Assembly: GCA_030390025.1 (NCBI GenBank)
Contig: CM059432.1
Coordinates: 59,336,001-59,400,000 of the forward strand
Reading direction: 5' to 3'
Length of the DNA stretch: 64,000 bases
Source of the DNA: Squalus acanthias
Lineage: Eukaryota
In this document: positions 32,046-55,408 of the stretch, in pieces
Numbering within the stretch: position 1 is the stretch's first letter
How the letters are laid out: each line of letters begins with the position of its first letter
The notes under the pieces: model-generated
Told to the model about the DNA's origin: nothing
What the model saw: only the letters and a program-made list of their open reading frames with translations
The model's database searches: none
Program-made: the position numbers and the translations under genes

Positions 32046-32507
32046 GAAAGACTTGCATTTATATAGCGCCTTTCACGACCACCGGACGTCTCAAAGCGCT
32101 TTACAGCCAATGAAGTACTTTTGAAGTTTAGTCACTATTGTAATGTGGGAAACGCGGCAGCCAATTTGCGCACAGCAAGCTCCCACAAACAGCAATGTGA
32201 TAATGACCATAAATCTGTTTTTGTTATGTTGGTTGAGGGATAAATATTGGCCATGAGACCAGGGATAACTCCCCTGCTCTTCTTTGAAATAGTGTCATGG
32301 GATATTTTACGTCCACCTGAGAGAGCAGACAGGGCCTCGGTTTAACATCTCATCCGAAAGACGGCACCTCCGACAGCGCAGCTCTCCCTCAGCACTGCAC
32401 TGGACTATCAGTTTAGCTTTGTGTGTGCAAACCCCTGGAGTGGGACTTGAACCCACAACCTTCTGACTCAGAGGCGAGTGTGCTACCAACTGAGCCACAG
32501 CTGACAC
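32046..32507 (-). mobile_element. Full-length tRNA-derived DeuSINE (SacSINE1-like)
   Basis: Minus strand has an A box (TGGCTCAGTTGG), a B box (GGTTCAAGTCC) and the Deu-domain core GCCGTCTTTCGGATGAGATGTTAAACCGAGG...CCCATGACACTATTTC. Confidence 0.88.
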
Positions 32508-35500
32508 TACTGGATATAAGGAAACAATTTGTTTGCACTTAATTAAATGTTCCAGTTCGGTGTTCCATGATAATGCAGTGTTCAGAGAACGGTCAAAGAT
32601 GGGAGAAATGTCATTGTTACAATCTGGGCCCTCTCCCCACACTCCTCCTTGTGCTTACGGCAAAAAGCGGTTTCCATAGGCAGACCTGCACCTCCTATGA
32701 ACCAAAATTTCACCTGATGCCTGCAGTGAATGGGATGTAAGGAATCTCTAGGCTAACAATTTACTCTTTTACCAATGGCTTATACTAGAAACAATACTGA
32801 TTGCCCACAATACGTACCTAATCTCTCCAAAAGGCAGAAAACATCACACTGAGACAGTAACAACGACAACTTGTGTTTATATGGGCCTGGAATTCACTGC
32901 AATGGGGATATTGGCAACGGATGCCATAAGTTAGACCGGTGAGCACCCTAATGCTCAGCAAATTTACGCCAAAATTTGCTGGAGAACTAATTAGAATATG
33001 ACAGCGGAAAATCTGAATTAGCACGGCCTATGTATTGATCCCGCTGCCACTTACTTTCCTATTAATAGCGGATTGAAATAAGTCATATCGCTCTGCATCG
33101 TACTTCTATTTTAAATCTGCACTTTAATAAACATGGCACACCAAGCATTCCATTGTGGCAAAATTCTAACTATTTAGGTAATAGCACTAGCGATGTTAAT
33201 GCCACTTACTATTATTTAAAGTACACTTTTATTCATTAAAAATTTTTCTAGGAGTTGTTGATATGTTTTGCATCTGTCTGCAGAATAAATGGGCAATCTG
33301 GTTGCCTTCTCTAAAATTCTTCTTGAAATTCGATAGAAACCACCTGCTTGTGCGTCTGTCGTTAATTTGTTGACTTGGGGTCTTGACTCGCACCAGAAAA
33401 TGAACTAACTGAAGATGTCATCGGTTTTGACAAAGTCCTTGGTTAAATGGGTCAAATAAGACAACTTTGAGAGATTTTTGAAGCATGTGCACGTTCATTT
33501 GCGCATGCAAGAGAGACTGACCTGGAAATTCGGGAGCGCCCATTTTTGGCCATTCGGGACCATGTCACAGTGTCTCTCAGGTAAAAGAGTCCGGTCCGGA
33601 GATGTGAGGGGTGGGGGGCCAGACAACGCAGGACCGTGCGTCGGGGCAGGAGTCGGGAGAGAATCAGAAGGGTCCTTTAATGTGGGGATCCCTGCTCCTC
33701 CTGGCTCCACATTCAGGTAAGTTACTTACCTTCTGTGTTGCAGACGTTCCATGGGGTTGGTTTCCCTGATTGCAGCCCACGATGGCGCTGGCTGCCTCAG
33801 GGCAAACCAACATTGGAGCGGGGACCTCAAGGAGGAGCGAGGCCCCTTATTTGCATATGCAAAGGGGCGAACGTCTGCTTCAGGCGTGAGTAAAGAACGC
33901 CTCGTTTGCCCTTACCCAATATAGCGGGTGGCACTCTTCCAGCCGAAGTGTGCATGCACTTCCTTCCAGTCAGTTTGGGGCCTTAGTAGGCTGCGTAGCA
34001 GCTGGAAAATCTCTTTAAAAGGACAAAGCTCCATATATGTCAGACGTATTAATGGGAGAGTGCGACAAAATGTTTAACATTTCTGATGTAGACCAACGAT
34101 CTCAATCACGGCAATAATTGAAAAATAATGATGCACCAGGCCAATATCCGGAAACTGTTCTAACATTTTTTATATTTTCAGAAGATCTTGGTTGGACCAA
34201 TGCCTCAATTTTTGATCAACATAAACAATTATTTATTAGTGCGGACTTTTAATTTCAGATATCTCCATCTGCGCTCCGAGATTGTGTAACAATCCTAAGG
34301 CTTTAAAGGGGCCCCAGCTTAAAAATAGCTGTGTTCAGGGTTTTTGCTGGATTCATCGAGTCAATTTATATCAAAGGATCAGGCTACTTTCCAACTCGAT
34401 AGCTTTGTATCGATTAAGGGAAAAATCCGGATTACTTTGATAGTTTCCCAATAATATGAATTACATGCAAATTTGGGTCAATAAGCAAGAGTTTGTGTGT
34501 GGCCTGTGCTGAGCTCCGCAAAGACGCCCAAACTCTGGAAAATACAACTTGTTTCCTGAAATACAAGTCCACAAATAACGTCTCCAACACCATCATTATC
34601 GAAGTGGCAGCAGCATGAAGAATGGCTTAAATGCAGCAAATTTGTGATCACCATTGATTTTAATGGGTATTAGAAGTACCTACTAACTTTTCAGCAAGGG
34701 GTAATGATGGAGTGGTGCAATAGTCCCTGCAAATTATGGCGTGGTGTAAGTAATGACATAAGTCATAATTTGTGGAATTTCTACACTAGAATAATGGCGT
34801 ACGCCATAACTATGGTGAACAAACCAAGGTTCCCACTCAGTTACAGCTGTTCCAGTCAGCTTCTCACATCACAGACTTAAAAAGTCTTCCTCACTAAACA
34901 AATTTCTTTGAAGCAGCCCAGAGACGCTTTCTCCACAGGCAGGTAACCAAGCTTTTAAATCAATTATATTTTTCAGGCAGACAGAGGATGCATTGTCACC
35001 CACTCCCCTCATCTGCTTGATTACTAGGGCAATGCCTGTGACCTACTTTCCCCATAAACAGTTTAGTCAACATATCGAACAGCTTAGTTGCTCCAAAGTG
35101 ACAACTTACACTGCAAGCATGCCTGTATTTAGCATTTCAGAGACCAGGAATATTGCGGATGCATTTGACTGTAGTATAGGCAACTGAGAGTCCAATAGAA
35201 GATCAGCTGGCCACCTCCCTCCAATACCAATCTCGAGATTTTGAGCATTTGCTTCACTTAGAACCTCTCGAGCCAAAAAGACAAAGGAAAATTTAACAAA
35301 ACCAGCAGAAATGACTTCCACTTTCAAATTTCCAGTATGTTGGCCTCATTCCAATTTAAAATGATAGAACATAAAAATGTTATCATTTGAAACAGGCTCC
35401 ATCCCTATTGCTCTCACTGCCAAGCCTGTGTCAATATGTGAGCAGACAGTAAGAATTATTGAGAAGGACATTTTTAAATCTGAATCATTCAAAATTGGGG

Positions 35501-35931
35501 AAAATATTAGATTTACAGTATTAAAAATAAAATTCAATTTGAATACCTGTAATATTGAATTAAATGGCACCGAACAGACAATTTACGAAGCTGCCATTTT
35601 GTTCTGATTAGCTACATGAAATGACATAATGGCAGTAACGAGCCATATGTTGTGCACCACTCCACTCTGAAAGTAGCTGAAAGGCACTGAAAGACAGCTA
35701 AAGAGAAAGATCCCAATATGGCACATTTACATAGTGCTTTTCACATCGTCAGGCGATCCCAAAGTGCTTCACATCCAATAAACGATGTTTGAAGTGTAAT
35801 CACAATTTGTACACAGCAAGGTTCCACAAACAACAAATGAGAGAAACTTCCAGCTAATCTTTATTGGTGGTGTTGTTTGAAGGAAAAATACTGGCCGGGA
35901 CATTGGGAGAACTCCCCGCTCTTCTTCAAAT

Positions 35932-36129
35932 AGTGAGAAGTCGCACAACACCAGGTTATAGTCCAATAGCTTTATTTGAAATCACAAGCTTTCGGAGCAC
36001 TGCTCCTCGTCAGGTGACGAAGGAGCAGCACTCCGAAAGCTTGTGATTTCAAATAAAGCTGTTGGACTATAACCTGGTGTTGTGTGACTTCTCACTTTTG
36101 TCCACCCCAGTCCAACACCGGCATCTCCG
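35932..36129. mobile_element. About 200-bp palindromic Penelope family A insertion
   Basis: About 80-bp inverted arms plus a 3' tail (TTTGTCCACCCCAGTCCAACACCGGCATCTCCG). TSD CTTCTTCAAAT(AGTG) at 35921 and 36130. Confidence 0.88.
35982..36017 (-). ncRNA. Minimal hammerhead ribozyme motif (Penelope family A)
   Basis: Minus strand reads TCAC-CTGACGA-GGAGC/AGT/GCTCC-GAA-AGCT-T-GTGA. Confidence 0.75.
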
Positions 36130-36629
36130 CTTCTTCAAATAGTGCCATGGGATCTTTTACATCTATCTGAACAGAATTAATGTCTCATCTGAAAGACAGG
36201 ACCTCCGACAACACCGTACAACCTCAGTACAGCAATGCAGTATTAGCCTAGATACTGGGCACAAATGCTGGATTGGGGCTTAAACCCACAATCTTCTGAC
36301 TCAGAGGCCAGATTTCTACCACTGAACCAAGCTGACACTTTTGGCTATTTCTGTCTTATGTTGATGTTTTCTATCTGGCATGTCTATCCTAGAATCATAG
36401 AATTTTACAGCACAGAAGGTAGCCATTTAGCCCATTGCATCTGTGACGGCTCTCTAAAAGAGTTACCCAATTAGTCCCATTCCACATACTCTTAGATTTT
36501 ACTTTTTAAAATATTTATCCACTTTCTTTTTGAAAGCTACTATGGATTCTGAATGAAGAGCATTCCATGTTCTAACAACCCACTGTATGAAGAAAAATTC
36601 TTCTAAACACTCCCTTTATTCATTTGGTG

Positions 36630-38120
36630 ACAAGGAGGATAGTAACAGACTTCAGGACATAGACAGACTGGTGAAATGGGCAGACATGTGGCAGATGAAA
36701 TTTTGGTAGGAAGAATGAGGAGAGGCAATATAAACTACATGTTACAACTTTAAAGGGGGTGCAGGAACAAGAGAGACCTGGGGATGCACGTACACAAGTC
36801 TTTGAAGGTGGCAGAAGTGGAGAAGGCTGTGAAAATGGCATACGGGATCCTTGGCTTTATAGATAGTGGCATATAGTGCAAAAGCAAGAAAGTTATGGTA
36901 AATCTTTATAAAACACTGGTTAGGCTAGGGTGACTATTTTTTCTAAACCAAATCCAGGGTGGGAGCACCGCAAAGCAGCAAGGATGGAAAATGTAGGTGG
37001 CGCAGTGTAGTGGGGCAACTTTTCTAGCAGCCTATGTATTAACAGTTGCACATATACACTGCAAATGCAAAACAAATTTGCATATAATTACCGCAGATGT
37101 GACATCACACTATTGAAGTGCATTCAGACATCGGACATCGCCAACCCACCCCCCCGTGACTGAGGTCACACCTGGCCCCTCCCCCCCAGTGACTGAGGTC
37201 ACACCAGACCCCTCCCCCCCAGTGACTAAGGTCACACCTAAACCCCCAACCGCCAGTGATGTTGGTCAAACCTGACCACGACCTCTTCCCCCCCACCATC
37301 CCCCACCCCCCTCACACAGTGTCTAGGATTAGCCTGCCCCCACTTTCCCTGGTGACTGACCTCCCCCGCAGCCTCTCCATCACCTGCTCCGGTTGACATG
37401 CTCCCAGGCACTTTCGCCGCTGACAGTCCAGCAGCACGAGCTTGGCCAAAATACTTGAAACTCAGAAACAACAACCTGCACATGCGCTGAGACCCCGCCC
37501 AATCGCGCATGCGCAGTGAGTCACTCTGGCCACTGTATAAGTTGCTGTTTACTTTAGCCTTAGAGCCGCAAACTCACAGCTCGGGGGTTACACTCACTGC
37601 CCAAGGGGTACACTTCGGGGATGCGTTTTGTAAACCGGGGACATTGTTTGCCTGGGGACACAGTACCTCATACGGGACTGTCCCCGGAAAACGGGGACGT
37701 ATGGTCACTCTACGTTAGGCCCTAGCTGGAGCATTGTGGCCAATTCTGGGCACCACACTTTAGGAAGGATGTCAAGGCCTTAGAAAGTGTGCAGAGAAGA
37801 TTTGGAGAGACTAGAGAAACTGGGGTTGTTCTCTTTAGAGCAGAGAAGATTAAGGGGATATCTGATAGAGGTGTTCCAAATCATGAAAGGTTTTGATAGA
37901 GTAAGGAAGGAGAAATTGCTTCCAGTGGCAGAAAGGAACCAGAGGACACAGATTTAAGGTAACTGGCAAAATAATCAGAGGAGACATGAGAAATCTTTTT
38001 TACAAAGCCAACAGTTATGATCTGGAACACACTGCCTGAAAGGGTGATGGAAGCAAATTCAATAGCAACGTTCAAAAAGGAATTGGATAAATACTTGAAA
38101 AGGAAAAAAATTGCAGGGCA
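36630..38120 (+). mobile_element. Old CR1 3' fragment split by a hAT MITE
   Basis: The CR1 sequence AAAACACTGGTTAGGC...CCTAGCTGGAGCATTGTGGCCAATTCTGGGCACC is restored across the insert. Confidence 0.8.
36926..37712 (+). mobile_element. Second copy of the hAT MITE
   Basis: Ends TAGGGTGACT / GGTCACTCTA and 8-bp TSD GGTTAGGC / CGTTAGGC. Colinear with 25801-27241 but has only ~3 repeat units. Confidence 0.9.
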
Positions 38121-38126
38121 ATGAAA

Positions 38127-38592
38127 AGAAAGACTTGCATTTTTTTAAGCGGCTTTCACGACCACCAGACGTCTCAAAGCCCTTTACAGTCAATGAAGTA
38201 CTTTTGAAGTGGAGTCACTGTTGTAATGTGGGAAACGTGGCAGCCAATTTGCGCTCAGCAAGGTCCCACAAACAGCAATGTGATAATGACCAGATAATCT
38301 GTTTTTGTTATGTTGGCTGAGAGATAAATATTGGCCAGGACACCGGGGATAACTCCCCTGCTCTTCTTCGAAATAGTGCCATGGGATCTTTTACATCCAC
38401 CTGAGAGAGCAGACGGGACCTCGGTTTAACGTCTCATCCAAAAGACAGGACCTCCGACAGTGCAGCGCTCCCTCAGCACTGCACTGGAGTGTCAGCCTAG
38501 CTTTATGTGCTCAAGTCCCTGGAGTGGGACTATGAACCCACAACCTTCTGACTCAGAGGCGAGTGTGCTACCCACTGAGCCACAGCTGACAC
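38127..38592 (-). mobile_element. Full-length DeuSINE
   Basis: High similarity to 32046-32507 over the full length. Confidence 0.88.
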
Positions 38593-39264
38593 TGTGGGGA
38601 AAGAGCAGGGGAGTGACACTAATTGGATTAACTCTTTCAAAAAGCCGACACAGGCACGATAAGCCAAATGGACTCTTTCTGTGCTGTATCATTCTATGAT
38701 TCTATGATATGAAATTTATACCCTCTAGTTACTGACTCATCAACCAGTGGGGATAGATTTTTGTTGATTTATCTCATCAAAACCTCTCAATTTTGAAGAC
38801 CTCAATCAGATCTCCTCTTAACCTTCTTTGTTCCAACGAAAACAGCTGCAGTTTCTCTCGTTTCCCCTCATAATTAAAGCTCCTCATCCTTGGTATCATC
38901 TTAGTGAATCTCTTCTGCACCCTCTCCATGGCCTTGACATCGTCCCTAAATTAAAGCACCGAAGACTGGACTCAATATTCTAATTACAGCCTATCCAAAG
39001 ATGTGTATAGGTTAGCACTACCTTTTGCTTTTGTACTCTAAACAACTATTTATAAAGCCTATGATCCTATTTGCATTTTCTTAGTTTTGTCAACTTGTCC
39101 TCCCACTTCTAAAGATTTGAACTGCCAAATCTTCCGCTCCTCTACTCCATTTAAAGTTTTATAATTTAGTTTATATGTCCTCTCCTTATTTATCCTTCCA
39201 AATATATCATCTCTCAATGCTCCACATTAACTTACATTAACTTAAAAAAAAAATAATAATAAAA

Positions 39265-41537
39265 ATAATAATATGATAGAATTCTTCATTAGGATGGAGA
39301 GTGAAGTAGTTGAATCAGAGACTAGGGTCCTGAATTTAAATAAAGTAAACTACGATGGTATGAGGCGCGAATTGAGTAGGATTGATTGGGGAATGTCACT
39401 CAAGGGGTTGACGGTGGATAGGCAATGGCAAACATTCAAAGACTGCATGGATGAACTACAGAATTTGTACATCCCAGTGTGGCATAAGAATAAAACAAAA
39501 AGGGTGACTCAACCGTGGCTAACAAGGGAAATTAGGGATAGCATAAGATCCAAGGAGAGGGCATATAAATTGGCCAGAAAAAGCGGTAGCCCTGAGGATT
39601 GGGAGCAGTTTAGGATTCAACAAAGGAATTAATTAAGAAGGGGAAAATAGAATATGAAAGTAAGCTTGCTGGGAACATAAAAACTGACTGTAAGAGCTTT
39701 TATAGATATGTGAAGAGAAAAAGATTAGTGAAATCAAGTGTAGGTCCCTTGCAGTCAGAAGCGGGGGAAGTTATAATGGGGAACAAAGAAATGGCAGCCC
39801 AATTAAATGCATATTTTGGTTCTGTCTTCACAAAGGAGGACACAAATAACCTCCCAGAGATGTTAGAGAACATACGGTCTGATGAAAGGGAGGAACTGAA
39901 AGAAATCAGTATTTGCAGGGAAATGGTGTTCGGGAAATTGACGGTATTGAAGGCCGATAAATCCCCAGGGCCTGATAATCTACATCCTAGGGTACTTAAG
40001 GAAGTGGCCCTAGAAATAGTAGATGCATTGCTGATCATCTTCCAACATTCGATGGAATCTGGAACTGTACCCATGGATTGGAGGGTAGCTAATGTTACCC
40101 CACTATTCAAAAAGGGTGGTAGAGAGAAAGCGGGGAATTACAGACCGGTAAGCCTGACATCGGTAGTGGGGAAAATGCTAGAGTCCATTATAAAGGATGT
40201 AATAGCTGAGCATTTGAAAAACAGTGACAGGATCGGACAAAGTCAACATGGATTTACAAAAGGTAAATCGTGCTTGACTAATCTACTGGAATTTTTTGAG
40301 GATGTAACTGGGAAAATAGATAAGGGAGAACCAGTAGATGTGGTGTATTTGGACTTTCAAAAGGCTTTCGATAAGGTCCCGCATAAGAGATTAGCGTGTA
40401 AAGTTAAGGCACATGGGATTGGGGGCAAGGTATTGACTTGGATAGAGAACTGGTTGGCGGACAGAAAGCAGAGAGTAGGAATTAATGGGTCTTTTTCCGA
40501 GTGGCAAGCAGTGACTAGTGGGGTACCGCAGGGATCGGTCCTTGGACCCCAGCTATTCACAATATACATTAATGATCTAGATAAGGGAATTAAATGTAAT
40601 ATCTCCAAGTTTGCAGATGACACAAAGCTGGGTGGGAGTGTGTGCAGCGAGGAGGATAGCGAGAAACTTCAGGATGATCTGGACAGGTTGGGTGAGTGGG
40701 CAGAAGCGTGGCAGATGCAATATAACGTGGATAAGTGCGAGGTTATCCACTTTGGTGTCAAAAACAGAAAGGCAGACTATTATCTGAATGGCAATAGATT
40801 GGGAGAAGGGGAAGTGCAACGAGACCTGGGTGTCCTTGTGCACCAGTCGCTGAAAGTAAGCATGCAGGTGCAGCAGGCGGTGAAGAAGGCAAATGGTATG
40901 TTGGCCTTCATAGCGAAAGGGTTTGAGTATAGGAACAGGGATGTCCTGCTGCAGTTGTACAGGGCCTTGGTGAGACCACACCTTGAGTACTGTGTGCAGT
41001 TTTGGTTGCCTTATCTGAGGAAGGATGTTCTTGCCATGGAAGGAGTTCAGCGAAGATTCACAAGGCTGATACCTGGGATGGCAGGAATGACATGAGGAGA
41101 GATTGGGTCGATTGGGCTTATACTCACTGGAGAAAAGAAGAATGAGAGGGGATCTCATCGAAACATATAAAATTCTGACAGGTCTGGACAAACTAGATGC
41201 AGGAAGAATGTTCCCGATGGCCGGAGAGTCCAGAACCAGGGGTCATAATCTACGGATAACGGGTAAACCATTTAGGACAGAAATGAGGAAGAATTTCTTC
41301 ACCCAGAGAGTGGTGAACCTGTGGAATTCTCTACCACAGAAGGTAGTTGAAGCGAAGTCATTAAATATATTCAAGGATGAGTTAGATATATTTCTTAAAG
41401 CTAAAGGTATCAAGGGATATGGGGAGAAGGCAGGTACAGGGTACTGAGTTTGGATGATCAGCCATGATCTCATTAAATGGCGGAGCAGGCTCGAGGGGCC
41501 GAATGGCCTACTCCTGCTCCTATCTTCTATGTTTCTA
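39265..41537 (+). mobile_element. Young 5'-truncated CR1 (HER1-like) LINE
   Basis: ORF2 lies in three frames (39273, 39710, 41103). The 3' UTR ends CTCCTATCTTCTATGTTTCT. No endonuclease N-terminus is present. Confidence 0.95.
39710..41095 (+). pseudogene. CR1 ORF2 reverse transcriptase segment, 461 aa without stops, bounded by frameshifts
   Basis: YRPVSLTSVVGK, QHGF, YLDFQKAFDKVPH, GVPQGSVLGP and FADD motifs. Confidence 0.93.
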
Positions 41538-42400
41538 TCTGGCATCTATGTGCCAAATCTAACAAGTTTATGTTCTCTTGAATTCTTTACAGTTAACCAG
41601 GCTCCCTATTTTTGTATCCCCTTGAAAATTTTGTGGGGAGGCAGAGGGGTTAGAGAGGGAATTCTAGAGCATGGAGCCAGGTGGCTGAAGGTATGGCTGC
41701 CAATGGTAGAGGGAAGGGATGGAGGAGTGCACAGGAGTCTGGAGTCAGAGGAATGGCGAGTTCTGGGGATTGGGGCTGGAGGAGGCTACACAGATAGAGA
41801 GGCAAGGCCATAGTGACTTAAACACGAGGATTACAATTTTTAATGTGAGGCATCTAATATTGTACTACTAATTTATCATGGTCAATTTCTATACATTTCT
41901 GCTGCGAACTGGTTGAACAATGCCTATAGCAACAAGCCAATATTCCAGTTTTACCGAAGGTGGGACGAGGGGCAGGTAACCAATCCGCTCGCAGGAGGCG
42001 GGTCTGGCGTTGAAACCTCTTAAGGCGGCTGTGAGCCTCCATTTTAACAGTGCTTCTATTTCTAACCATAGTCGGCTGGGTTTCCCAGTCCTCGGGAAAC
42101 CCGGAAGGTAAAAGGAGGCGAGAAGGGCTACATCCAGAAGGCAAATTCCTTTACAGCACTGCTTGTGGGCCAGGAGGAGCAGGAGTGTTTCCTCCAGGTC
42201 CAACAAGCTTATCTGTAACCCCCACCTCCCACAATAGGACCCCTCGACCACCACAATCTGCCTGTTCCCCCTCCCACCCAGTGATCGGTCCCAACCCCAC
42301 CACCATCTCGCTCCACTACCACCATCTCACTCCCCCGACCACCATCATCCCCCCCCCCCCCCACCCCCGGTCACAGAGCAATCTCTTTTTGCCCCCTCCC

Positions 42401-42679
42401 TGCTGCTCCGCCATGTCCCTCTGCTGCTCCGCTATGTCCCTCTGCTGCTCCGCTATGTCCCTCTGCTGCTCCGCCATGTCCTTCTGCTGCTCCGCCATGT
42501 CCCTCTGCTGCTCCGCTATGTCCCTCTGCTGCTCCGCTATGTCCTTCTGCTGCTCCGCCATGTCCCTCTGCTGCTCCGCCATGTCCTTCTGCTGCTCCGC
42601 TATGTCCCTCTGCTGCTCCGCTATGTCCCTCTGCTGCTCCGCCATGTCCTTCTGCTGCTCCGCTATGTCCTTCTGCTGC
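42401..42679. repeat. 21-bp minisatellite, 13 full units (TGCTGCTCCGCYATGTCCYTC)
   Basis: Read directly; it lies inside a GC-rich MITE-like segment (~41935-42750). Confidence 0.95.
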
Positions 42680-42879
42680 AGGCTTTCCCGCCCAGCAATC
42701 AGGTTGGCTGTCAGGCAGGAAACCTGGAGAAAAAATTTAAAAGACGTCCTGCGTTTCTTTCTCCACAGATGTTGCCTGACCTGTTGAGTGTTTCCAGCAT
42801 TTTCTGTTTCTTTAGGGGAATCTTCAACATGGGCGCACACAAACTACAGCAACAAGATCTGACAAGAGAACTGTTCCCG

Positions 42880-43750
42880 CTGATTGGAAGGTAGCAAATG
42901 TAACCCCACTATTTAAGAAAGGAGGGGAGAGAGAAAGCGGGGAACTACAGACCAGCTAGCCTGACATCAGTAGTAGGGAAAATGCTAGAATCTATTATTA
43001 GAGACGTGGTAACAGGGCACTTGGAAAATAAAAATAGCATTGGGCAGAGTCAACGCCGATTTATGAAAGGGAAATCGTGTTTGACAAATCTATTAGAGTT
43101 TTTTGAGGTTGTAACTAGCAGAATAGATAAGGGGGAACCAGTGGATGTGGTGTATTTGGATTTTCAGAAGGCATTCGATAAGGTGCCACACAAGAGGTGA
43201 TTAAACAAAATTAGGGCTCATGGGATTGGGGGTAATATACTAGCATGGACTGAGGATTGGTTAACGGACAGAAAACAGAGAGTAGGAGTCAACGGGTCAT
43301 TTTCGGGTTGGCAGGCTGTAACTAGTGGGGTACCGCATGGATCAGTGCTTGGGCCTCAGCTATTCACAATCTACATCAATGATTTGGATGAGGGGACAAA
43401 ATGTAATATATCTAAGTTTGCTGATGATACAAAGCTAGGTGGGATTGTAAGTTGTGAGGAGGTTGCAAAGAGGCTTCAAGGGAGATATAGACAGGGTAAG
43501 TGAGTGGGCAAGAACATGGCAAATAGAATATAATGTGAGAAATGTGAAGTTATCCACTTTGGTAGGAAAAATAGAAAAGCAGAGTATTTTTAAATGGTGA
43601 GAGATTGGGAAATGTTGGTGTTCAGAGGGACCTGGATATCCTTGTACACGAATCACTGAAAGTTAATATGCAGGTACAGCAAGCAATTAGGAAAGCAAGT
43701 GGTATGTTGGCCTTTATTACAAAAGGATTGGAGTATAAGAGTAAAGACAT
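42880..43750 (+). mobile_element. Internal CR1 RT fragment
   Basis: MLESIIRDVVTGHLEN...YLDFQKAFDKVPHKR; truncated at both ends. Confidence 0.9.
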
Positions 43751-46700
43751 CTGAAGCAGGCTGCTCAGATCCCTGCTCTGACTGCCGAGATGCTCTTGGC
43801 CGATGATCTCTGGTTGTTGGAGCCCATGAGGGCCCCGCCAAGGACTGCTTCACCTGCACCTGTGCAGGGGCAGACTAGGCAGCATGTCGGGTAGTGGCTG
43901 GGGTGGGGAGTCAATGGGTGAGCACTTTGAGTGGAGTCCCACTTCCATGCCTTCTTTCACCATCATCCCTCTCCTGGGCCAGTGGCACATCACTCTTACC
44001 TCTCTGCTGGGGAGTAGCTTGGTGCAGATCAGTAATACTTTATAAGGCCACAGATAAGATATCTGTCATCCTGTTTAAGGCGGCAGACATGCTGGCATCC
44101 AAAGTCTGCATGGCCGTGGTCATGACCTGCATGGACTGATCTGATAGCGGCGATTAAAGTTCCACGGAGGCGGCCACTCGCTCCAGGGTAGACATTCTCG
44201 CAATGACCTTTGACATCAATCCACAAATGTTCGAGCTGGACGCCTCCATCCTCTCCGCTATTGTCTGCCAGTACCTCGCAAATTTGCTGCTGTCCCTCTA
44301 TGATTCTCCTTTCCATCAATTGCCCCCAGGGTTCAGCTTCTGTCTCCAGTTGAGCAGAGCTTGGAGAGGATTGTGCCCCCCGCCCCCCCACCCCACCCCG
44401 ACACGGACTCTCCACATCTGTCCCTGCCACCAGTATCTGCTCGTGCTCACTTGTGAACTGTAACTCACCAGGTGAAAACTCAACTAGCTGTCTAACAGGA
44501 CCCACCGAAGTGCGAGTATCTCCACTGGTGCCTGCTAATATGTCCTGGGACGGTGCATCCTCAGAAGGAATCAGGTCCTCTGAGGAATCGTCATCAGGAA
44601 AGTCGACGGACTGCTTATAAAGTTGCCAGAAAAAGCGGTCAGCCTGAGGATTGGGATCTTTTTAGAAATCAGCAAAGGGGGACCAAGAAATTGATAAAGA
44701 AAGGGAAAATGGAATATGAGCACAAACTAGCAAAAAATATAAAAATGGATTGTTAAAGCTTCTATAGGTATGTGAAAAGGAAAAGACTGGCGAAGGTAAA
44801 TGTAGGTCCTTTACAGTCAGAGACGGGAGAATTTATAATGGGGAATGAGGAAATGGCAGAGAAATTAAATAAATACTTTGTTTCTGTCTTCACAGAGGAA
44901 GACACAAAAAACCTCCCAGAAATACAAGAAAACCAAGGATGTGGCGAGAATGAGGAACTTAAAGAAATTATTATTAGTAATAAAAACAGTACTAGCAAAA
45001 TTAATGGGACTAAAAGTCGATAAATCTCAAGGACCGGATGACCTACATCCTAGGGTTTTGAAAGAGGTGGCCATTGGGATAGTGGACACATTGGTTGTCA
45101 TCTTCCAAAATTCGATAGATTCTGGAACGGTTCCTGCAGATTGGAGGATAGCAAATGTAACCCCGCTATTTAAGAAAGGAGGGAGAGAGAAAATGGGGAA
45201 CTACAGACCTGTTAGCCTCACATCAGTAGTTGGGAAAATGCTGGAATCTATTATAAAGGATGCAATAACTGGGCACTTAGAAACTAATAGTAAGATTGGG
45301 CAGAGTCAACATGGATTTATGAAAGGGAAATCCTGTTTGACAAACCTATTGGAGTTCTTTGAGGATGTAACTAGTGGAGTAGACAAAGGGGAACCGGTAG
45401 ATGTGGTGTATTTGGATTTTCAGAAGGCCTTCGATAAGGTTCCACACAGGAGGTTGGGGAACAAAATGAGGGCACATGGAATTGGGGGCAATATACTAGC
45501 ATGGATTGAAAATTGGTTAACAGACAGAAAACAAAGAGTAGGGATAAACGGGTCTTTTTCAGGATGGTAGGCTGTGACTAGTGGGGTACCGAAAGGATCG
45601 GTGCTTGGGCCCCAGCTATTCACAATCTATATCAATGATTTGGATGAGGGGACTAAATGTAACATTTCCAAATTTGCTGATGATACAAAGCTAGGTGGCA
45701 GTGTCAGTTGTGAAGAGGGTGTGAAGAGGCTTCAAGGGGATCTCGACAGGCTCAGTGAGTGGGCGAGAACATGGCAGATGGAATATAATGTGGATAAATG
45801 TGAAGTTATCCACTTTGGTAGAAGAAACAGAAAGGCAGAGTATTTCCTAAATGGTGAAAGATTGGGGAATGCAGATGCACAAAGGGACCTGGGTGTCCTT
45901 GTACATGAGTCACTGAAAGTGAATGCGCAGGCGCAGCAAGCCGTTAGGAAGGCAAATGGTATGCTGGCCTTCATTACAAGAGGATTTGAGTACAGGAGTA
46001 AAGAAGTCTTACTCCAATTATATAGGGCCTTGGTGAGACCACACCTGGAGTACTGTGTACAATTTTGGTCTCCTTACCTAAGGAAGGATATACTTGCCAT
46101 AGAGGGAGTGCAACGAAGGTTCACGAGATTGATTCCTGGGATGGCGGTACTGTCATATGAGAAGAGATTGAGTAAACGAGGCCTGTATTCTCTTTAATTC
46201 AGAAGAATGAGAGGGGATCTCATTGAAGCATACAAAATTATTACAGGGCTTGATGGTGATGCTGGGAGAATGTTTCCCTTGGCTGGGGAGTCTAGAACCA
46301 AGGGCCACAGCCTCAGGATAAAGGGTAGGCCATTCAGGACTGAGCTGAGAAGAAATTTCTTCACGCAGAGGGTGGTGAATCTTTGGAATTCCCTACCTCA
46401 GAGGGCTGTGGAGGCTCAGTCATTGGGTATATTCAAAACAGAAGTCGATAGATTTCTGACTAGTAAGGGCATCAAGGGATATGGCGATAGGGCCGGTGAA
46501 TGGAGTTGAGGCAGAAAATCAGCCATGATCTCATTGAATGGCGGAGCAGGCTCGAAGGGCCGAATGGCCTACTCCTGCTCCTATTTCTTTTGTTCTAATA
46601 CTGTTCTACGCGTGAAGGCCCTGGAGGAGAGAAGAAGTGGACATGAATTGGTACTGGCAATGTAACAATGTTGCTACTCAGCATAATTGCTCTGATCATA

Positions 46701-47670
46701 TTTCACTCGGTCCTGAAATCAAGTCAACATGACTGAGTCTTGTATGAAATGTGGGTCAGAGGTATTTTAATTTTATCACCAGGCAGCTTCGAAGTCCCAG
46801 TCGCCTCCCTCTCTGATGGTCAGGGACGCAGAGATGTCACTCATCCCTTGCTCTACAGCGGTCAGCTGCACAATCTGTGGCAGGCCACCTCCAGTCCTCT
46901 CCCTTGTGTATTGCGCTCTCTTCTCCTGCAATAGGGGAAAGAGACCTATGAGTGACTGTAATGGCATGTGTTCGCCCGATGGATGCAGTGCATTCAGTGA
47001 GGGTGACTATCAGGCAGATGCATCATATTGCAGAAGGATGAGGGTGAGTGGGAGTGGTGGATGGATAAATGGGGATGGGAGGAAGTGGATAGAAAGTGAA
47101 CGATGGGTGCTCTTCAAGCTTAAGTGGGTGTGAGGAATGATGTGATGGAGTACGCTTGACAAGACAGCAAGAGGGATGGGGTGCACTACAGGATGTAGGT
47201 GAATCTGCAACTGTACTCACCTTTCCTGATCTGGTTAGGTCATTGAAGCGCTTCCTGCGCTGAATCCAGAACGGGCCAGAATGCTCCTGCTGTTGATCTC
47301 CTCAACCACCTCCAACCATGCCTTCTTGGTAACAGCAGCAGGTCTCTTCCTGTTATTGGGGATGATGATCTCCTTCCAGCTCCTCACTGCACCCAGCTAT
47401 ACATCAAGTGATGCATCATTAAAGCAGGGCACATCCCTTGACTGTCCGAGTCCAGCTATGAACTTCACCATCTCTTACACAAACTCCTAACTCCTGCAAA
47501 TGCCATCTTTAAATTGGCGAGTTCAGATCACGTCATGCGGGTGAGCACTACGCCCGCGCATTGGAGACGTGAAACCCGGAAGTAAAATTATAATTAGGAA
47601 GCCATGTTGTAATTGGACATTCCGACACGCCAAAACATCTTCCGAGTTTCACGCTCACAATCGCCCCCCT
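43750..47670 (-). mobile_element. Harbinger remnant: spliced Myb/SANT-like gene interrupted by CR1
   Basis: Minus strand ~47221-47435 reads PCFNDASLDV...KKAWLEVVEEINSRS...QRRKRFNDLTRSGK|GTGAGT. The next exon begins after TTGCAG near 46926 (EKRAQYTRERTGGG). More decayed coding sequence lies at 44029-44505. Confidence 0.72.
44610..46597 (+). mobile_element. 5'-truncated CR1 LINE with few disablements
   Basis: RT ORFs 44878-45570 and 45574-46197 are separated by one in-frame TAG; typical 3' tail. Confidence 0.95.
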
Positions 47671-48194
47671 CCGAAACAAAATATCACATGATGATATTAT
47701 TACATCCCATGCTAAAACTATGTAGAACAGAACATAATTTTTGTAGCAATCCATTCTCCATTTTGACTCTTCCAGTCTTTAACTCTGCAAATGAACTAAT
47801 GTTAGAATGCCAGATCTACAGTGCCTCTATGGAATATTTTTCAACATGGTGCTGTTATGAGTTTCTCTTGCCTATTCCCATCCTATTCTAAATATGAGTT
47901 ATGATTTAGTTCCATTTCACAAAAATAACAAATCATGCAAAGCCAGCTAATAAGCAGGTAATTACTCACAGATAGAAACAATTTCAATAACTGGATTGTC
48001 TACGGAGTCCTCCACCACCTCACTGTGACACATCTAAAACTCGATTAAAAAGAGCTTCTCTGTGATAGAGGACTCCTTCACCTGCAAAGCCAATGTAAAG
48101 GAGTACATTGCGCTAATGCCTCAATGCACCTCTGATTGAATCAACAAATCCAGTTCCCTTGAAACTAATAAACAAACACTTGTCTCTTCTCATC

Positions 48195-48445
48195 AAAATC
48201 TGTACAGTGCTTCACACTGGAGTTAGCTTCCACATGTACACTGACGACACCCTGCTCCACCTCTCCACCACCGCCTTGATGTTGCCAGACTGCTTGTCCA
48301 ACATCCAGTGTTGGATGAGCTGCAATTTCCTACAGTTAAGCATTAGGAAGACTGAAGTCATTGTCTACAGCCCCCGCCACAAACCTCATACCCTCGCCAC
48401 TGATTCCATTCCCTTCCCCGCTCTTTGTCTCAGGCTGAACTGGAC
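48195..48445 (+). mobile_element. L2-clade LINE RT fragment
   Basis: GVSFHMYTDDTLLHLS...DCLSNIQCWMSCNFLQLSIRKTEVIV resembles the L2 YADDTQLY...NFLQLNxxKTE motif. Confidence 0.7.
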
Positions 48446-48659
48446 ATTGCAGCATGCCTGGAAGGAAACAGAGGAAGAAGTTTGAGGCAAAGAATGCCAT
48501 GGAGATTAGGAGGGGTGACCGAAAGCAATCAAAGTTTTAAGGAGGGCCTTAAGAGGAGGAGAGGGTGATGAAGAAACGGAAATGTAAGTTAATGGCTTTT
48601 CCCGGTGCATAATTATGTTCTTAACTCCAATAAACTCAAATTAATCTATCTTTAGCGAA

Positions 48660-49760
48660 TCATTAGAAACAAGAATAATGCTCGAGGATAGAAAAGTAAT
48701 TGACTTAACACCAGTGTCCAAAGGGGCTTAAGATGACCCAGAAAACTATAGCCCAGTGAGCCCAACATCTGTTACAAGTATTAGACGGCATAGTAAAAGA
48801 AAGGATAAATCAAACACCAAGACAGGCATGGTGTAGATATGGTGCACAAGTGGGAATCAGCTAGGTTTATGGGAATAAAAACTCGGCTAATAAATTTTTG
48901 GAGTTCTTTGAGGAAGTGACTGATTTTGTTGACAACAACAATTCTGCAGATGTTACATAATTAGATTCCAGCAAGGTTTTTGAGCAACTAGGAATGGGCA
49001 ATGAATGCGGCCCTACCAATGTTGCCCACGGCCCAAGAACAAATAGGAAAAAAGGTGCCACTGTGATCAGTGCTGGAGCCATTTGCTGTTCACAATGTTT
49101 ATTAATGAATGACTTAGAGCTGGGGACAAAAACAAAACAAAGTTTGCAATTGACACCAAATTAGAGGGAAACAGGCAAACCAATTACATGTACAGGTTGG
49201 AAAGGTGGGCTGGTAAGTGGCAAATTAAATTAATTATGGATAAATGCAAGGTAAGAACACTAGGGAAAGTAATAAACAATAGGAATATAAACTAAATGGC
49301 TCTACACTACAGGGTAACAGTGACTTCAAAAGTACTTCATTGGCTATAAAACACTTTGGGACGTCCTGAGGTTGTGAAATGCACCATATAAATGCAAGTC
49401 TTTCTTCTTTCTAGGACACAATCCAGGAGAGGGATCTGTAACTAATGATGGATAACTCACTGAAACCAATAGCTCAGGGTACAGGTGCCAGAAGAAAAGC
49501 TAATCAGATCTCAGGATCTATAGCCAGGAGGTATGGAGCACAAATCCCACTAGGTGATAATGAGTCTGTACAAGGCACTGGACTGACCTCACCTGGAATA
49601 CTGTGTACAACTCTGGTCACCATATTACAGCAAGGGTATCCAGGCGTTAGAGGCAGTGCAGGAAAGGGCAACCAATCTGTTAGCTAGTTTAAATCATCCA
49701 AGCTGTGAGGAGAGGTTAAAGAGCCTAGAATTGTATACTCTGGAGAAAAGGTGGCTCACG
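48660..49760 (+). mobile_element. Highly decayed CR1 fragment with short SINE/LINE tails inserted
   Basis: Residual AACTATAGCCCAGTGAGCC, GAGTTCTTTGAGGAAGTGAC and CACCTGGAATACTGTGTACAA blocks. Confidence 0.65.
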
Positions 49761-50762
49761 AGAGGGCTGCCATGCTTTTCATTATGGGGCTAGTAAAAAC
49801 CTCAAGATGCAAAGACTGAATGATAATGGATCTCAGAGGGGACCGATTACCTCTAAAAATGCCCATGTAATACCTACAACATGAAGAAACATTATACAAC
49901 TTTGAATCTTTGGCGTAACCAGGGTCTCTAGCTCTGACATGATACCGCTCCAATTTTCCGGACTGCTGTCAAGTCAGGCACCTCTGATGTACATGTGTGG
50001 GACAACTGGCCCAATTATGGCAATCGTCTTGTCCTGCCATTTGGAACGGGATCTGCATTGCTGGGTATGAGTAGCCAGGAGTCCTGCTCCACCACACTTC
50101 TGCTGGCAGTGCAGGGCTCCTGGAATTTCAGGCCTTTAATGTTTTATAAAATAATAAAATCAACACACTGAAAGCCACGGTATTGAAAAATGCTTTAACA
50201 TTACCGCTGGCGATATTATGGTCTCAATTTCGTAGGACTAAGAAACTAATTAGCTTCCGGTTGTTGTTAATTAGCAAAAGCAAACTCCACAATATTCAGA
50301 AAGATTGGCCACGCTATTTATGGGAAGGCAGGAACGGTGCAGGGGAAAACCCGGCAAGGATGGGGATGCGGAGGTCCTGCCGAATTTAGCAGTAGAAATT
50401 TATCATTTTTGTCTTCCGTTCCCCGCCTGGCAGCTGGCCAAATTGACAGGCTGAGGAGCTGGAAAACCAGTGGTAGGAGGCTGCAGTCAGGGACCCTTGA
50501 GGACAGTCCCCGGTTATCGTGATCGCGGGGCTGGCCGGAGGTCAATTGTGGGGCAGGCCAGAGGATGGGAGCTCGGGGGGTCTGGGGCGGGGAAGGAGCG
50601 CAGGCGAGGTCGACTGTGGGGCAGGTCAGAGATCAAAGGTGGAAGAGGGAGGTTGCCAATCGCTGTAGTTGGGGGGGGGGGGGGGGGGGCCGGGGGCGGG
50701 AAGAGAGAGGCAGCAATTGGCAGAAAGGAGGCCAAGGTTTGCTTAAGCAGTTGAGGGACCAC

Positions 50763-51542
50763 TGCAAGAGGTTTTACCTCAAACTTAATGATTCGGACGT
50801 GACTCCATATTGGCAACATTAGATGTTTTATTGGTGTACAGCCGGCAAAGACTCATATTGACTGACAGTAATTTACAGTTGCGAAGGATATTACCCGGTT
50901 TGGTCACTGGACAGAGTAGTGTGCGATGGCTCCGTTGTTTCTTTAATCCGGTCCGGCGGTTGTCTTACAAGCAGAGAAGAGCGTTAGGCTTTCGCCAGCA
51001 TGGATCCGCTCCTCAATACCAACATACCAGAGAGGCGTTAGGCGCACTTGGCCAGCATGGATCCGCCTCTACAGGTACCTTCGTCCTTCTCTCTAAATCT
51101 GTACATCTCAGGCTAAACAGTCTCCTTTTATCCCTCTTTTCCCAGACCATCTGACTCTTCATATCCAACCGTAGGTGACATCCATAGCTGAGGTAATAGT
51201 TAAGAGAGTTTCAAACATTCGCTCTTCTCGTGAACAGTCCCATATTTGGTTAATCCAAAAGGGTCTCGCTTTCTTATGCTGTCTTTGCATGTTCTATTGT
51301 ATAGCCATTATCTCATCTTGACCCATGACATAGCTTTGCCATAACAGGACGTAGCTGTTAGCTTTAGCCGTTGGCCTTACTACCCACTTCTGCAAAAAGC
51401 TTAGTTGAACCTTGCACAGGCTGATAACCACCAACAGTAATGTCTCTTTAGCAGTAAGGGGAATTTTACAAGAAAAAAGGAATATTCATAAAGCAAGATA
51501 CATTTTATAATCATAAAGCTTAATACATTTTATAATCTCACA
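50763..51542 (-). mobile_element. Solo LTR (780 bp) inserted in a GC-rich MITE
   Basis: TG...CA termini and 4-bp TSD CCAC (50759-50762, 51543-51546). Minus-strand AATAAA at 50827-50832, GATAAAA at 51126-51132 and internal direct repeats. Confidence 0.75.
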
Positions 51543-53174
51543 CCACTCCTGCTCCTCTTGGCCCACAAGGAATGCTGTAAAAAGCACTTACCTTCTTGAA
51601 TCGGCAGCTCCCGCCTCTATTTCATTGCCGAGTTTCCCAAACTCTGGGAAACATGGCCAGCAACTGTTAAATTTAAACCGTGGGACCCTGACTTAAGTAT
51701 GATAATGAAATGTTCCACCTCTCCAAGCAGGGACACACGCAAGCCTCGCAACCCACTGCTGTTTAAACGGCAATGGGCACGTACTCTGCGGGATCCGTTC
51801 CTTTTTTTTAGGGTTTAAACCCCCCCCCCACCTCCTCCTGCTCGTCATGGGGTGGAGGATGAATATCAACCCCATTATTTCAGTCTGAAGTCTAAAATAT
51901 GTCAGCTTTTGTGCAAGAAAAATTGAAGGAGACACACAAAACATAGCAAGACTATCCCTAGTTGTTCTGAAATATTGTCAACATATTTTCATGAGGCCTT
52001 TCATTTTGCAGATTTTTCGAATTGGAAAATCCATGAAGATAGATCCCAAGGAAAACTAAAGCCCATTAATTATTAAACATAAGCAGAATTGTAACAATTA
52101 GTATTGCATGATCAGTAAAATGAAAGTTTAGCAAAAGTAAAATGTAATTTTAAAAATACAAAATCTAAATGCAACTAAACTGAAGTGTTTTTCAAGCCAC
52201 TCCACTACTTGCAATCCTATCCGGGTTTCCTTAAGCTTTCTGCATCCTCGCTCAGACTCCTGGGGCTGGATTGTCCTACTCGTTAGCTTGATTCCCAGTC
52301 CAGTCCTGCCCTGTCCCCTTCCTGGTTTTGGACTTGGCAAAAGAGGAGAATACTGTATCAGATACAACACAAGGCAAAGGGCTGTGCAGTGCCAAATTTA
52401 TACCAAACAAACTGCAGCTCAATTGTGGTTTCAGGAGACATAAATCCGAGAGAGTAAAACTCAGAATATGCAGTCATCAGACAGCTCCACATGCAGGTTA
52501 TCTGATCCCACCATTCCGACAACTGGGACTTCACAGGAGTCTTATTGTCTGTTGCAAGAGCAGACCCATAGCTGGTGTTTACTCAATGACTTCATTGACA
52601 TCTTTATCATACCATAGCCGTCTTGTATTCATTGCCTGCACACAGCTAATTCATTAGATGTGAGGGCCACAACACTTACAGCAATTCTAAAATGAAAGAA
52701 ATGAAACAGAAATCACATGCCTCACAACTCCATGCCATGTATAAAAATAGAAAATGGTGGAAATGCACAACAATTCCATCAGCATCTGAAAAAGCAAATA
52801 GGTCAACTCTTTGGGTGTAACCCATCATAGATCTAGGCAGAAGCATTGATCTATTTTCAAATTTCCAACATTCACTGTTGTCTTAACAATACCATCTGAG
52901 CATGTTGAGAGAGAATTTGCTCTAATAAGAAAAACAGAAGCTCTGTAATCAACTCTGAAAATCCTCACTGTAATCAAGCAAAACATTTTTATTACCAATA
53001 GGATTGTCAGCTGTCCTAGTATTTCACTATTTAAACAACTCATTTTATTAAACAGTGACCAGATGCTTCAGGGATACATTTGTCAGGATACTAGAAGAAT
53101 GCTCCTGCTCACTTCAAATAAATGAGTGAGAAGTCGCACAACACCAGGTTATAGTCCAACAGTTTTATTTGAAA

Positions 53175-53212
53175 TCACAAGCTTTCGGAGCTGCTGCCCC
53201 TTCGTCAGGTGA
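53175..53212 (-). ncRNA. Minimal hammerhead ribozyme motif, left arm
   Basis: Reverse complement of 54232-54269. Confidence 0.7.
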
Positions 53213-54231
53213 AGTGAAGGAATACGAATCGGCAAAGCATATATAGACAGAGAACAATGCCTGTGTAGCGTACAATGTCAGACGACTACAGTTAATCTTT
53301 CTGACTGCCTTTTATCACACCTCGGCAGAGAAACAATCAGGTCAGGAAGGCATTATATCAAAGACATAGCAAGATACAGCTAAGACAATGAGGTGGGGTC
53401 ACAGGGGGTCTAATGTGTCAAATGCAGTCTGTATAAACTTCAAAATTTTTACTTTGTTTTTTTAAATGGAAATCACATCTGTGAACAAGCCAACGACGAC
53501 TCGAGTCTGGATGACTCTACGTCATGTAGCGTGACATGAACCCAAGATCCCGGTTGAGGCCGTCCTCATGGGTGTGGAACTTGGCTATCAGTTTCTGCTC
53601 GATGATTTTGCGTTGTCGTGTGTCTCGAAGGCCGCCTTGGAGAACGCTTACCCGCAGATCCGAGGCTGAATGTCCTTGACTGCTGAAGTGTTCCTGCCTG
53701 GCGATTGTTGCGCGGTGTCCGTTCATACGCAGGATTGTTACCTCCCAGTCGGGGAACACTTCAGCAGTCAAGGACATTCAGCCTCGGATCTGCGGGTAAG
53801 CGTTCTCCAAGGCGGCCTTCGAGACACACGACAGCACAAAATCATTGAGCAGAAACTGATAGCCAAGTTCCACACCCATGAGGACGGCCTCAACCGGGAT
53901 CTTGGGTTCATGTCACGTTACATGACGTAGAGTCATCCAGACTCGAGTCGTCGTTGGCTTGTTCACAGATGTGATTTCCATTAAAAAAAAGTAAAAATTT
54001 TAAAGTTTATACAGACTGCATTTGACACATTAGACCCCCTGTGACCCCACCTCATTGTCTTAGCTGTATCTTGCTATGTCTTTGATATAATGCCTTCCTG
54101 ACCTGATTGCTTTCTCTGCCGAGGTGTGATAAAAGGCAGTCAGAAAGATTAACTGTAGTCGTCTGACATTGTATGCTACACAGGCATTGTTCTCTGTCTG
54201 TATATGCTTTGCCGATTCGTATTCCTTCACT

Positions 54232-54269
54232 TCACCTGACGAAGGGGCAGCAGCTCCGAAAGCTTGTGA
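54232..54269 (+). ncRNA. Minimal hammerhead ribozyme motif, right arm
   Basis: TCAC-CTGACGA-A-GGGGC/AGCA/GCTCC-GAA-AGCT-T-GTGA. Confidence 0.7.
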
Positions 54270-54641
54270 TTTCAAATAAAACTGTTGGACTATAACCTGG
54301 TGTTATGCGACTTCTCACTTTTGTCCACCCCAGTCCAACACCGGCATCTCCGCATCAAATAAATGTGTTGCAGGATCTTTTACAACCACCAGAGCAGCCA
54401 GACAGGTCCTTGGTTTAACATCTCATCTGAAACACGTCAACTCACTTTCTTGATTTTGCAGGTTCCACAGAGCAGGTGGGTCACCTGAACAGAGCGTCAG
54501 TGACTTTCTTTATACAGTGGTGTGTTGCTGTCTGACTAATGTGACAAAGGTCACCCAAGTCTACCCAAAAGGTCCAAATGGCAAAAAAATATTCAAGGCA
54601 GTGGTCATTTTCACTGCTACAGACAATGATGTTCTCCTGGT

Positions 54642-55408
54642 TCCCACTGTCCAGGGCCCCAAACACCCCATCCAGGTGAAACAGCGATTTACTTGTACTT
54701 CCTGCAATTTAGTATACTGTATTCGCTGCTCACGATGTGGTCTCCTCTACATTGGGGAGACCAAACGCAGATTGGGTGACCGCTTTGCGGAACACCTCCG
54801 TTCAGTCCGTAAGGGGGACCCCGAGCTCCCGGTGGCCTGTCACTTTAATTCTCCGCTCCACTCCCACTCTGACCTCACCGTCCTCGGCCTATTACACTGT
54901 TCCACGGAAGCTCAGCGTAAGCTCGAGGAACAGCACCTCATCTTTCGTTTAGGCACCCTACAGCCCTCTGGACTCAATATCGAGTTCAACAATTTTAGAT
55001 CATAACCTCAGCCCCTATCACATTTAGATTTTATTTTTTCATCCACCCTTTTGTTTGCCCCCCCCTTTTTTTTCCTCCCAGAAGCTGGCAGCTGTCCTTC
55101 ATTCTGCCAGTGCATTTCACACTTCTTTTAGCCTCAACCTGTCACATTAACACCTCCTCTTGCATTGATTATCTCTTAATGTCTCTTAATCTCTCCTTTT
55201 GTTCTTTCATCCCCTCCCCCTTTTCCCAGCTTTATCCTAGCTTTAAATCTATTTCATTTCCTGCTTTTTACCAGTTCTGACGAAAGGTCTTCGACCTGAA
55301 ACGTTAACTCTGTTTCTCTCTCCACGGATGCTGCCTGGCCTGCTGAGTTTTTCCAGCGTTTTCTGTTGTTATTTCGGATTTCCAGCATCCGCAGTATTTT
55401 GCTATCGT
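54642..55408 (+). mobile_element. 5'-truncated Penelope family B element with an open GIY-YIG endonuclease frame
   Basis: FTCTSCNLVYCIRCSRCGLLYIGETKRRLGDRFAEH...HF...H...GLN to a stop at 55005. Perfect 17-bp TSD AATGATGTTCTCCTGGT (54625-54641, 55409-55425). Confidence 0.93.
55273..55309 (+). ncRNA. Minimal hammerhead ribozyme motif in the Penelope B 3' region
   Basis: AGTT-CTGACGA-A-AGGTC/TTC/GACCT-GAA-ACGT-T-AACT. Confidence 0.75.

Follow-up and report, generated by a model that had tools for sequence, protein, structure and literature searches.

A Neptune-like Penelope element of Squalus acanthias with a loose, spaced palindromic target

Introduction

Endonuclease-positive Penelope-like elements (PLEs) are described as having a single frame, with a reverse transcriptase (RT) followed by a GIY-YIG endonuclease with a CCHH motif, and as occurring in partial tandems with an inverted truncated copy and a one-sided tail of 30-40 nucleotides (nt); the same description gives a CX2-5CxxC linker between RT and endonuclease as the mark of the Neptune/Nematis clade and calls the origin of the tandem and inverted structures undefined (Craig et al., 2021, PMC8557442). 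The target biases described for PLEs in the sources consulted are AT-rich sequence or ATT (PMC11167929), microsatellites (PMC8557442) and, for endonuclease-less moss families, 28S rDNA. This article concerns a 64,000-nt stretch of the Squalus acanthias genome (contig CM059432.1, positions 59,336,001 to 59,400,000, hereafter the window), in which two copies of a PLE interrupt the same short interspersed element (SINE) at the same site. The two insertions are independent events. The element behind them is a Neptune-like Penelope whose target throughout the genome is probably a loose palindrome, likely because its GIY-YIG endonuclease reads one half-site per strand and a predicted dimer nicks 12 bases apart.

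The shark element resembles the Neptune and Nematis PLEs in its RT-GIY-YIG frame, linker, CCHH motif, tandems, inverted copy and one-sided tail, and differs from them in its target, which is a spaced palindrome, most often with 12 nt duplicated, where the described bias is for microsatellites (PMC8557442). Structure, tail and inverted arms are already known PLE traits. No spaced palindromic PLE target was found in a literature search that left most subscription papers, supplements and Repbase outside its reach. R2 and the Tx1 group insert recurrently at one base of a multicopy target, with most copies there and in one orientation. The shark element likewise uses a recurrent single-base site, but with about 2% of its copies, in both orientations and in several unrelated hosts. 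I-TevI cuts within its CNNNG with a short overhang and, as a monomer, nicks both strands one after the other. The inferred nick of the shark element lies two bases ahead of CNNNG and the nicks are 12 nt apart, unlike I-TevI. I-TevI is the best fold match of the shark endonuclease and cleaves at CNNNG (PMC12663268), which each shark half-site contains; this likeness may be coincidence.

In Poseidon of Anolis carolinensis (PAc), both strands are cut and extended, two RT starts bracket the tail and a dimer is predicted via an N-terminal helix (Frangieh et al., 2024, PMC11167929). The shark element is set apart from PAc by its six-position palindrome, by a target-RNA match of 1-5 nt and by the end of its tail, which lies at the first ATG and not 111-118 nt inside the frame. 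Shark SINEs described as SacSINE1 or DeuSINE are about 460 nt long and very abundant (PMC5499810, PMC4824008); here such a SINE is older than the inserts and acts as a passive host.

Results

Target motif

Insertions were sampled from 151 loci, taken from a list of some 200 consecutive places in the first 12.6 Mb of contig C1, of which about 30 were left out; one of the loci had come from the Deu-site matches given below but is on that list too. They yield 167 distinct tail sites, 137 with a called target duplication and 30 without. The duplication is 12 nt long at 59 of the 137 sites and 12-14 nt long at 111. The 137 sites form 98 clusters, the largest of which have 13 and 10 members and are each used in both orientations.

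The motif was derived from 42 sites with a 12-nt duplication, one per non-SINE cluster. It reads C-N3-G-N-Y, 12 AT-rich nt, R-N-C-N3-G, that is, C at -7, G at -3, C or T at -1, G or A at +1, C at +3 and G at +7. The four outer positions lie outside the duplicated stretch and carry no calling bias: C-7 is found in 23, G-3 in 25, C+3 in 18 and G+7 in 25 of the 42 sites (binomial p 3e-6, 1e-6, 2e-3 and 1e-6, respectively). The mirror correlation of the motif is 0.85 at shift zero and at most 0.23 when shifted. Both half-sites are good, with two or more of their three positions matched, in 26 of the 42 sites and in 5% of the background, so the symmetry lies within sites and does not come only from mixed orientations. 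In the whole genome, the right half-site, taken at its commonest register, has 3,097 matches and its complement 531. The complement served as control because the shifted-register pattern (2,239 matches) is unusable, 44 of 100 listed matches being the CR1 hot spot described below.

A second strong hot spot (10 of 137 sites, in both orientations; L032, L101, L108, L117, L151, L172, L174, L180, L201, L203) resembles the 3' region of a long interspersed element (LINE), and smaller target clusters hold 5 and 4 sites. Microsatellites account for about one of the 137 called sites as judged by eye (L193, a dinucleotide repeat), although repeats may hide among the 30 uncalled ones.

Host sequences and orientation

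The host SINE in the window is presumably of Deu type (DeuSINE); its interrupted site is termed the Deu site. The initial annotation proposed that the family targets this SINE as a safe harbour, at one site, in one orientation and with TTCAAATA preferred over TTCGAAATA. Both window copies do lie at the Deu site, and genome-wide the site has 69 matches in the same orientation where uniform insertion predicts 6.8, an enrichment of about 10-fold. The sample nevertheless places 163 of 167 insertions elsewhere: only four (about 2 in 100) are at the Deu site, two per orientation, and no others appear by eye among 200 tail read-outs. Insertions anywhere in the host SINE number 10 of 167, to be set against a SINE cover of 6.4% of the sampled loci (a figure that includes the hit hosts). 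The comparison of tail flanks with SINE cover that the annotation suggested goes against SINE targeting, as flanks genome-wide are mostly non-SINE.

Orientation is not fixed either. In addition to the two sampled insertions in each orientation, the reverse-orientation pattern has 255 genome matches, and 25 of 30 examined are the Deu site reversed, with the same 12-nt duplication. Hosts reading TTCGAAATA are not spared, since 28 of the 69 occupied same-orientation hosts read GAAATAG by eye, and the annotation's G rule therefore fails. The Deu site is a real hot spot, yet the SINE is not the target of the family. With the occupancy of the common SINE form and of the LINE site given below, we regard SINE targeting as highly improbable and a safe-harbour strategy as unnecessary; half-site spacing matters, not the G.

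One further reading holds that amplification acted on a composite, a SINE or LINE with the insert already inside it, or that the rare SINE form described below was produced by insertion. Many junctions are indeed alike letter for letter, and two locus pairs (L132/L134, L133/L135) resemble segmental duplicates. Against this, the reversed Deu site shows 14 distinct insert lengths in the 14 (of 20) loci with both ends found, and 30 same-orientation Deu loci have varied inserts. In six cases of look-alike junctions the outer flanks have nothing in common. Since lengths and breakpoints vary among the inserts at the site, these are not one amplified composite, and the initial annotation was right to call its two insertions separate events. 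Together with the 15 distinct lengths at the LINE site and the 1,431 empty copies of the rare form, both given in the next section, these data leave the composite reading almost no credence.

Natural substrates

Natural variation in the SINE provides a pair of substrates that differ in half-site spacing. In the common form, two CTT units give the half-sites a spacing of 15 nt; in a rare form, a single CTT brings all six motif positions to the 12-nt spacing. Genome-wide, 39,674 two-CTT and 1,431 one-CTT sites are empty. In the reverse orientation, 94 one-CTT sites are filled; the two-CTT pattern has nine matches, of which seven are element junctions, so that the common form is filled at 7 of about 39,700 sites. 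The fill ratio of the one-CTT over the two-CTT form is 372 by these exact patterns and 88-100 from looser samples (19:6, 18:5). Since the one-CTT form is present on the undisturbed side in both orientations, it was not made by insertion.

The largest cluster of the sample (13 of 137 sites) lies in the RT region of a LINE, and 18 of 20 flanks match a LINE frame found in the window. We take this host to be CR1. Its site matches the motif in full, with 891 filled copies in one orientation and 6,529 empty ones, and the 16 (of 20) loci in which both ends were found have 15 distinct insert lengths. The CR1 site matches the motif better than the Deu site and is used more. Natural sites of this kind are filled at a rate of 6-12% in one orientation and form ready substrates.

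Used sites were also scored with a matrix trained on 32 singleton sites only. By its scores, the Deu site comes out on top in all three intact SINEs of the window. The one-CTT site is top in 13 of 15 SINE loci and second in the other two, and in each of 16 CR1 loci the CR1 site leads all 980 positions. The Deu site is used because it is the best motif match within an abundant SINE. The motif, its symmetry, the 12-nt duplication, the use of both orientations with the same duplication and the much higher fill at 12-nt spacing are established here.

Junctions and protein model

Most inserts (119 of 137) have an inverted head, which starts 28-43 nt upstream of the tail end. Target and element share microhomology at both ends: at 12-nt sites it averages 1.34 against 0.55 bases on the tail side (35 of 42 sites usable) and 1.82 against 0.68 on the head side (33 of 42 usable), and none of 10,000 permutations reaches either value. 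Only the 12-nt values count, as those of 11-14 nt duplications (1.70, 1.88) are inflated by the choice of the longest duplication. Of the 94 junctions at the Deu site in reverse orientation, 90 fall by eye at two RNA positions, 50 at 8 nt and 40 at 11 nt past the tail core. Both of these positions are places of RNA-target match, and the general mode is 6.

Such pairing raises the possibility that the hot spots reflect primer-RNA microhomology, or the shape of DNA with an AT-rich, bendable centre, in place of base reading by the endonuclease. The microhomology is real, both of the strongest sites are similar, in one orientation, to the region where the RNA is first copied, and the motif centre is AT-rich. 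The bases at -7, -3, +3 and +7, however, lie outside the duplicated stretch. Moreover, in the reversed orientation the primer end is identical in the one-CTT and two-CTT forms and the occupancy still differs 90-370-fold, so RNA pairing cannot explain that gap. We consider this account very unlikely.

For the protein, a structure model predicts self-pairing of residues 1-330 via a helix at 42-77, with a score of 0.48 against 0.04 for the best of three controls; the model runs have at least 19% common contacts and pLDDT of at least 59. Among solved microbial structures, 21 of 30 pairs and 0 of 23 single chains came up to the score mark; among eukaryotic ones, 17 of 29 and 0 of 30 did so. The model supports, and does not show, self-binding of residues 1-330.

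Insertions in the window

The two inserts, their host SINE copies and the intact empty copies are as follows.

35932/35936-36129, + strand: insert 1, a fold-back of two truncated element 3' ends, with the inverted arm left and the direct arm and tail right
36097-36128, + strand: insert 1 tail, 32 nt, at the right end only
35720-35935, + strand: host SINE 1, left part, 74-77% like the intact copies at 32045, 38127 and 57789
36130-36348, + strand: host SINE 1, right part
35921-35935, + strand: target duplication 1, left copy, 15 nt at most, with 13-14 nt the best half-site fit
36130-36144, + strand: target duplication 1, right copy
53125-54354: insert 2, inverted then direct arm, tail right
53125-53694, - strand: inverted arm of insert 2, without tail; its identity with the direct arm is 97.5%
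53730-53930, + strand: insert 2 endonuclease remnant, the last 66 codons of GIY-YIG, containing the conserved H, E and N
54236-54272, + strand: insert 2 hammerhead-like core motif in the terminal repeat, a pattern match only
54320-54354, + strand: insert 2 tail, which in full-length copies continues directly into the first ATG of the long frame
53075-53124, + strand: host SINE 2, left part, degenerate, ending with the left copy of duplication 2 (53114-53124)
54355-54443, + strand: host SINE 2, right part, beginning with the right copy of duplication 2 (54355-54365)
32045-32508, + strand: empty SINE of the common long-spacing form, Deu site top of 432 positions by matrix score
38127-38593, + strand: empty SINE of the common long-spacing form, Deu site top of 435 positions by matrix score
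57789-58242, + strand: empty SINE of the common long-spacing form, Deu site top of 422 positions by matrix score

These are the only two members of the family in the window. As first annotated, they interrupt the same SINE at the same motif with the tail on the right, each duplication carries the variants of its own host, and the three intact SINEs and a degenerate copy near 3533 are empty. The inserts differ in size, at 194-198 bp and 1,230 bp, and both are fold-backs in which an inverted arm without tail precedes a direct arm with tail; insert 1 is 92% self-complementary over 157 nt. Duplication 1 is 11 nt as written and up to 15 nt, its last four bases being common with the inverted head of the element, and duplication 2 is 11 nt. 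Host 1 lacks one base, which sets its half-sites 13-14 nt apart, and its site is at the 99th percentile by matrix. Given 300-1,200 such insertions genome-wide, the expected number of 64-kb windows with such a pair is 0.8-12, so finding both copies at the same site is partly a matter of selection.

The host SINE is within the length range of SacSINE1 copies (up to 463 nt); ARAGORN found no tRNA and Rfam no match in it or the window. Public contigs from five different runs, of 24 listed, contain no piece spanning the insertion site of insert 1. One contig of 136 nt, present in two other organisms, stops matching at 35935 and has seven further unmatched letters, which would fit an empty site and proves nothing. 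Across 35300-36800, contigs of two other organisms contain the tail and, by summed depth, much less inverted-head sequence; this is a weak hint that the present subfamily expanded in one lineage.

The element

The element is very abundant, with about 50,000 tail copies. The 32-nt tail has 32,808 exact matches in the 3.71-Gb genome against 0 for its reversed control, and its last 11 nt have 49,551 against 308. The 88,537 genome-wide matches of GGATCTTTTAC were not used as a count.

In loci L023 and L211 the tail leads into the first ATG of an 877-codon frame, which in L211 shifts late in the endonuclease. This single frame encodes an RT (RVT_1, E 2e-9) and then a C-terminal GIY-YIG endonuclease, of which complete versions are present in many other copies. 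Pfam detects the GIY-YIG domain in one of three fragments (E 3e-4; 21.4 bits, below the 22.6 cut-off). A CX4CxxC linker precedes the GIY-YIG core, and C54, C58, R74, H78, H94, H100, E124 and N139, comprising the CCHH motif and the catalytic R, H, E and N, are invariant in 8 of 8 aligned sequences. The predicted endonuclease model has a pLDDT of 88.8, and its top fold match is the catalytic domain of I-TevI (probability 1.00, target TM 0.82, E only 0.014); a search of solved structures by sequence with the element protein gave no match. The nearest homologs, which are unnamed or called 'uncharacterized', come from sharks (80-94%) and turtles (42-44%). The structural hallmarks are a tandem in L211, the inverted truncated copy noted above, a one-sided tail of 30-40 nt and the target duplication. 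Sequence features thus bear out the original label of Penelope-like element: by the definitions in PMC8557442, the element is an endonuclease-positive PLE and Neptune-like by its linker. A hammerhead ribozyme in the terminal repeat is a further trait of such elements; here a hammerhead-like core is a pattern match in insert 2 and absent in insert 1, with no Rfam match and a folding z of -0.27.

A near full-length copy lies at L211:1351-6266. It is preceded by an inverted partner of 1.5 kb, and a tandem tail follows 3,136 nt downstream; its frame is open for 29 codons upstream of the first ATG. The tail starts with a pyrimidine run ending in AG that looks by eye like a splice acceptor (window 54300-54354, L211:3633-3722). 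Drosophila Penelope retains an intron near its start. Loci L001-L251 include at least four subfamilies, told apart by the bases that precede the tail and by the first codons, and the two arms of each insert mostly carry the same subfamily variant.

The window also contains a second, unrelated Penelope-like family at 54634-55005, starting about 280 nt past insert 2, and at 25477-25729 (GIY-YIG E 5e-5; 39% identity to the endonuclease of the first family). A related repeat occurs at 25796-27251 and 36921-37722, with an internal tandem array at 26018-26796.

Discussion

The palindromic target motif bears out, from sequence, the part of the initial annotation that called for a sequence-preferring endonuclease. 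As to mechanism, we lean somewhat towards a PLE that integrates as a dimer reading two inverted CNNNG half-sites, with cuts 12 nt apart and RT from both overhangs at RNA spots set by pairing. In this scheme, the GIY-YIG endonuclease would read one half-site per strand, and the predicted dimer, with two active sites, would nick the strands 12 nt apart to leave 12-nt 3' overhangs. Each overhang would then prime RT on the element RNA, one at the tail end near the start codon and the other at the head end 28-43 nt upstream, at a start chosen by 1-5 bases of overhang-RNA pairing. Finally, the two truncated cDNAs would be joined into a fold-back insert.

The same palindrome could instead be served by a monomeric endonuclease that nicks the strands in turn, with the inverted arm arising by fold-back or template jump and not by a second priming. 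The top structural match, the I-TevI nuclease domain, is described as monomeric (PMC4065259), and inverted repeats are interpreted as self-priming by Arkhipova (2013). The head end, however, has as much target microhomology as the tail end, the head start 28-43 nt upstream agrees with the two in-vitro start sites reported for the anole PLE (PMC11167929), and the model supports N-terminal self-pairing. A monomer is therefore unlikely in our judgement.

Several points weigh against the dimeric palindrome reading, the self-priming interpretation just cited among them. The motif is loose, with all six positions matched in only 4 of 42 sites, and positions -1 and +1, as well as the bases at either end of the duplication, are in part a product of duplication calling and microhomology. 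The site of insert 2 has a modest fit (89th-97th percentile), and a test of half-site spacing against duplication length, with the window free to slide, gave no discrimination. The fill ratio comes from exact patterns in one orientation and one register only, the sample from a stretch of one chromosome with 30 of 167 sites lacking a duplication, and the cut positions from the duplications. The dimer prediction covers one third of the protein, without the endonuclease, and of 7 eukaryotic pairs that lack an older solved relative only 1 came up to its score mark. PAc differs in that ATT is preferred and the RNA at the RT start is reported as non-homologous to the cut DNA (PMC11167929).

Some 50,000 young insertions amount to a natural specificity map of a symmetric, spacing-dependent target, and include a natural substrate pair, three bases apart, with a difference in use of about 100-fold or more. 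The junctions show target-RNA pairing at both ends, and the mechanism of PLEs becomes reachable by a few direct assays. For genome annotation, nested insertions at a single SINE base need not imply SINE targeting. The finding points to a sequence-selective, non-restriction-like retrotransposon nuclease and, if the proposed mechanism is true, two-ended target-primed RT would explain the inverted repeats, one-sided tail and fixed duplication length of PLEs in one model.

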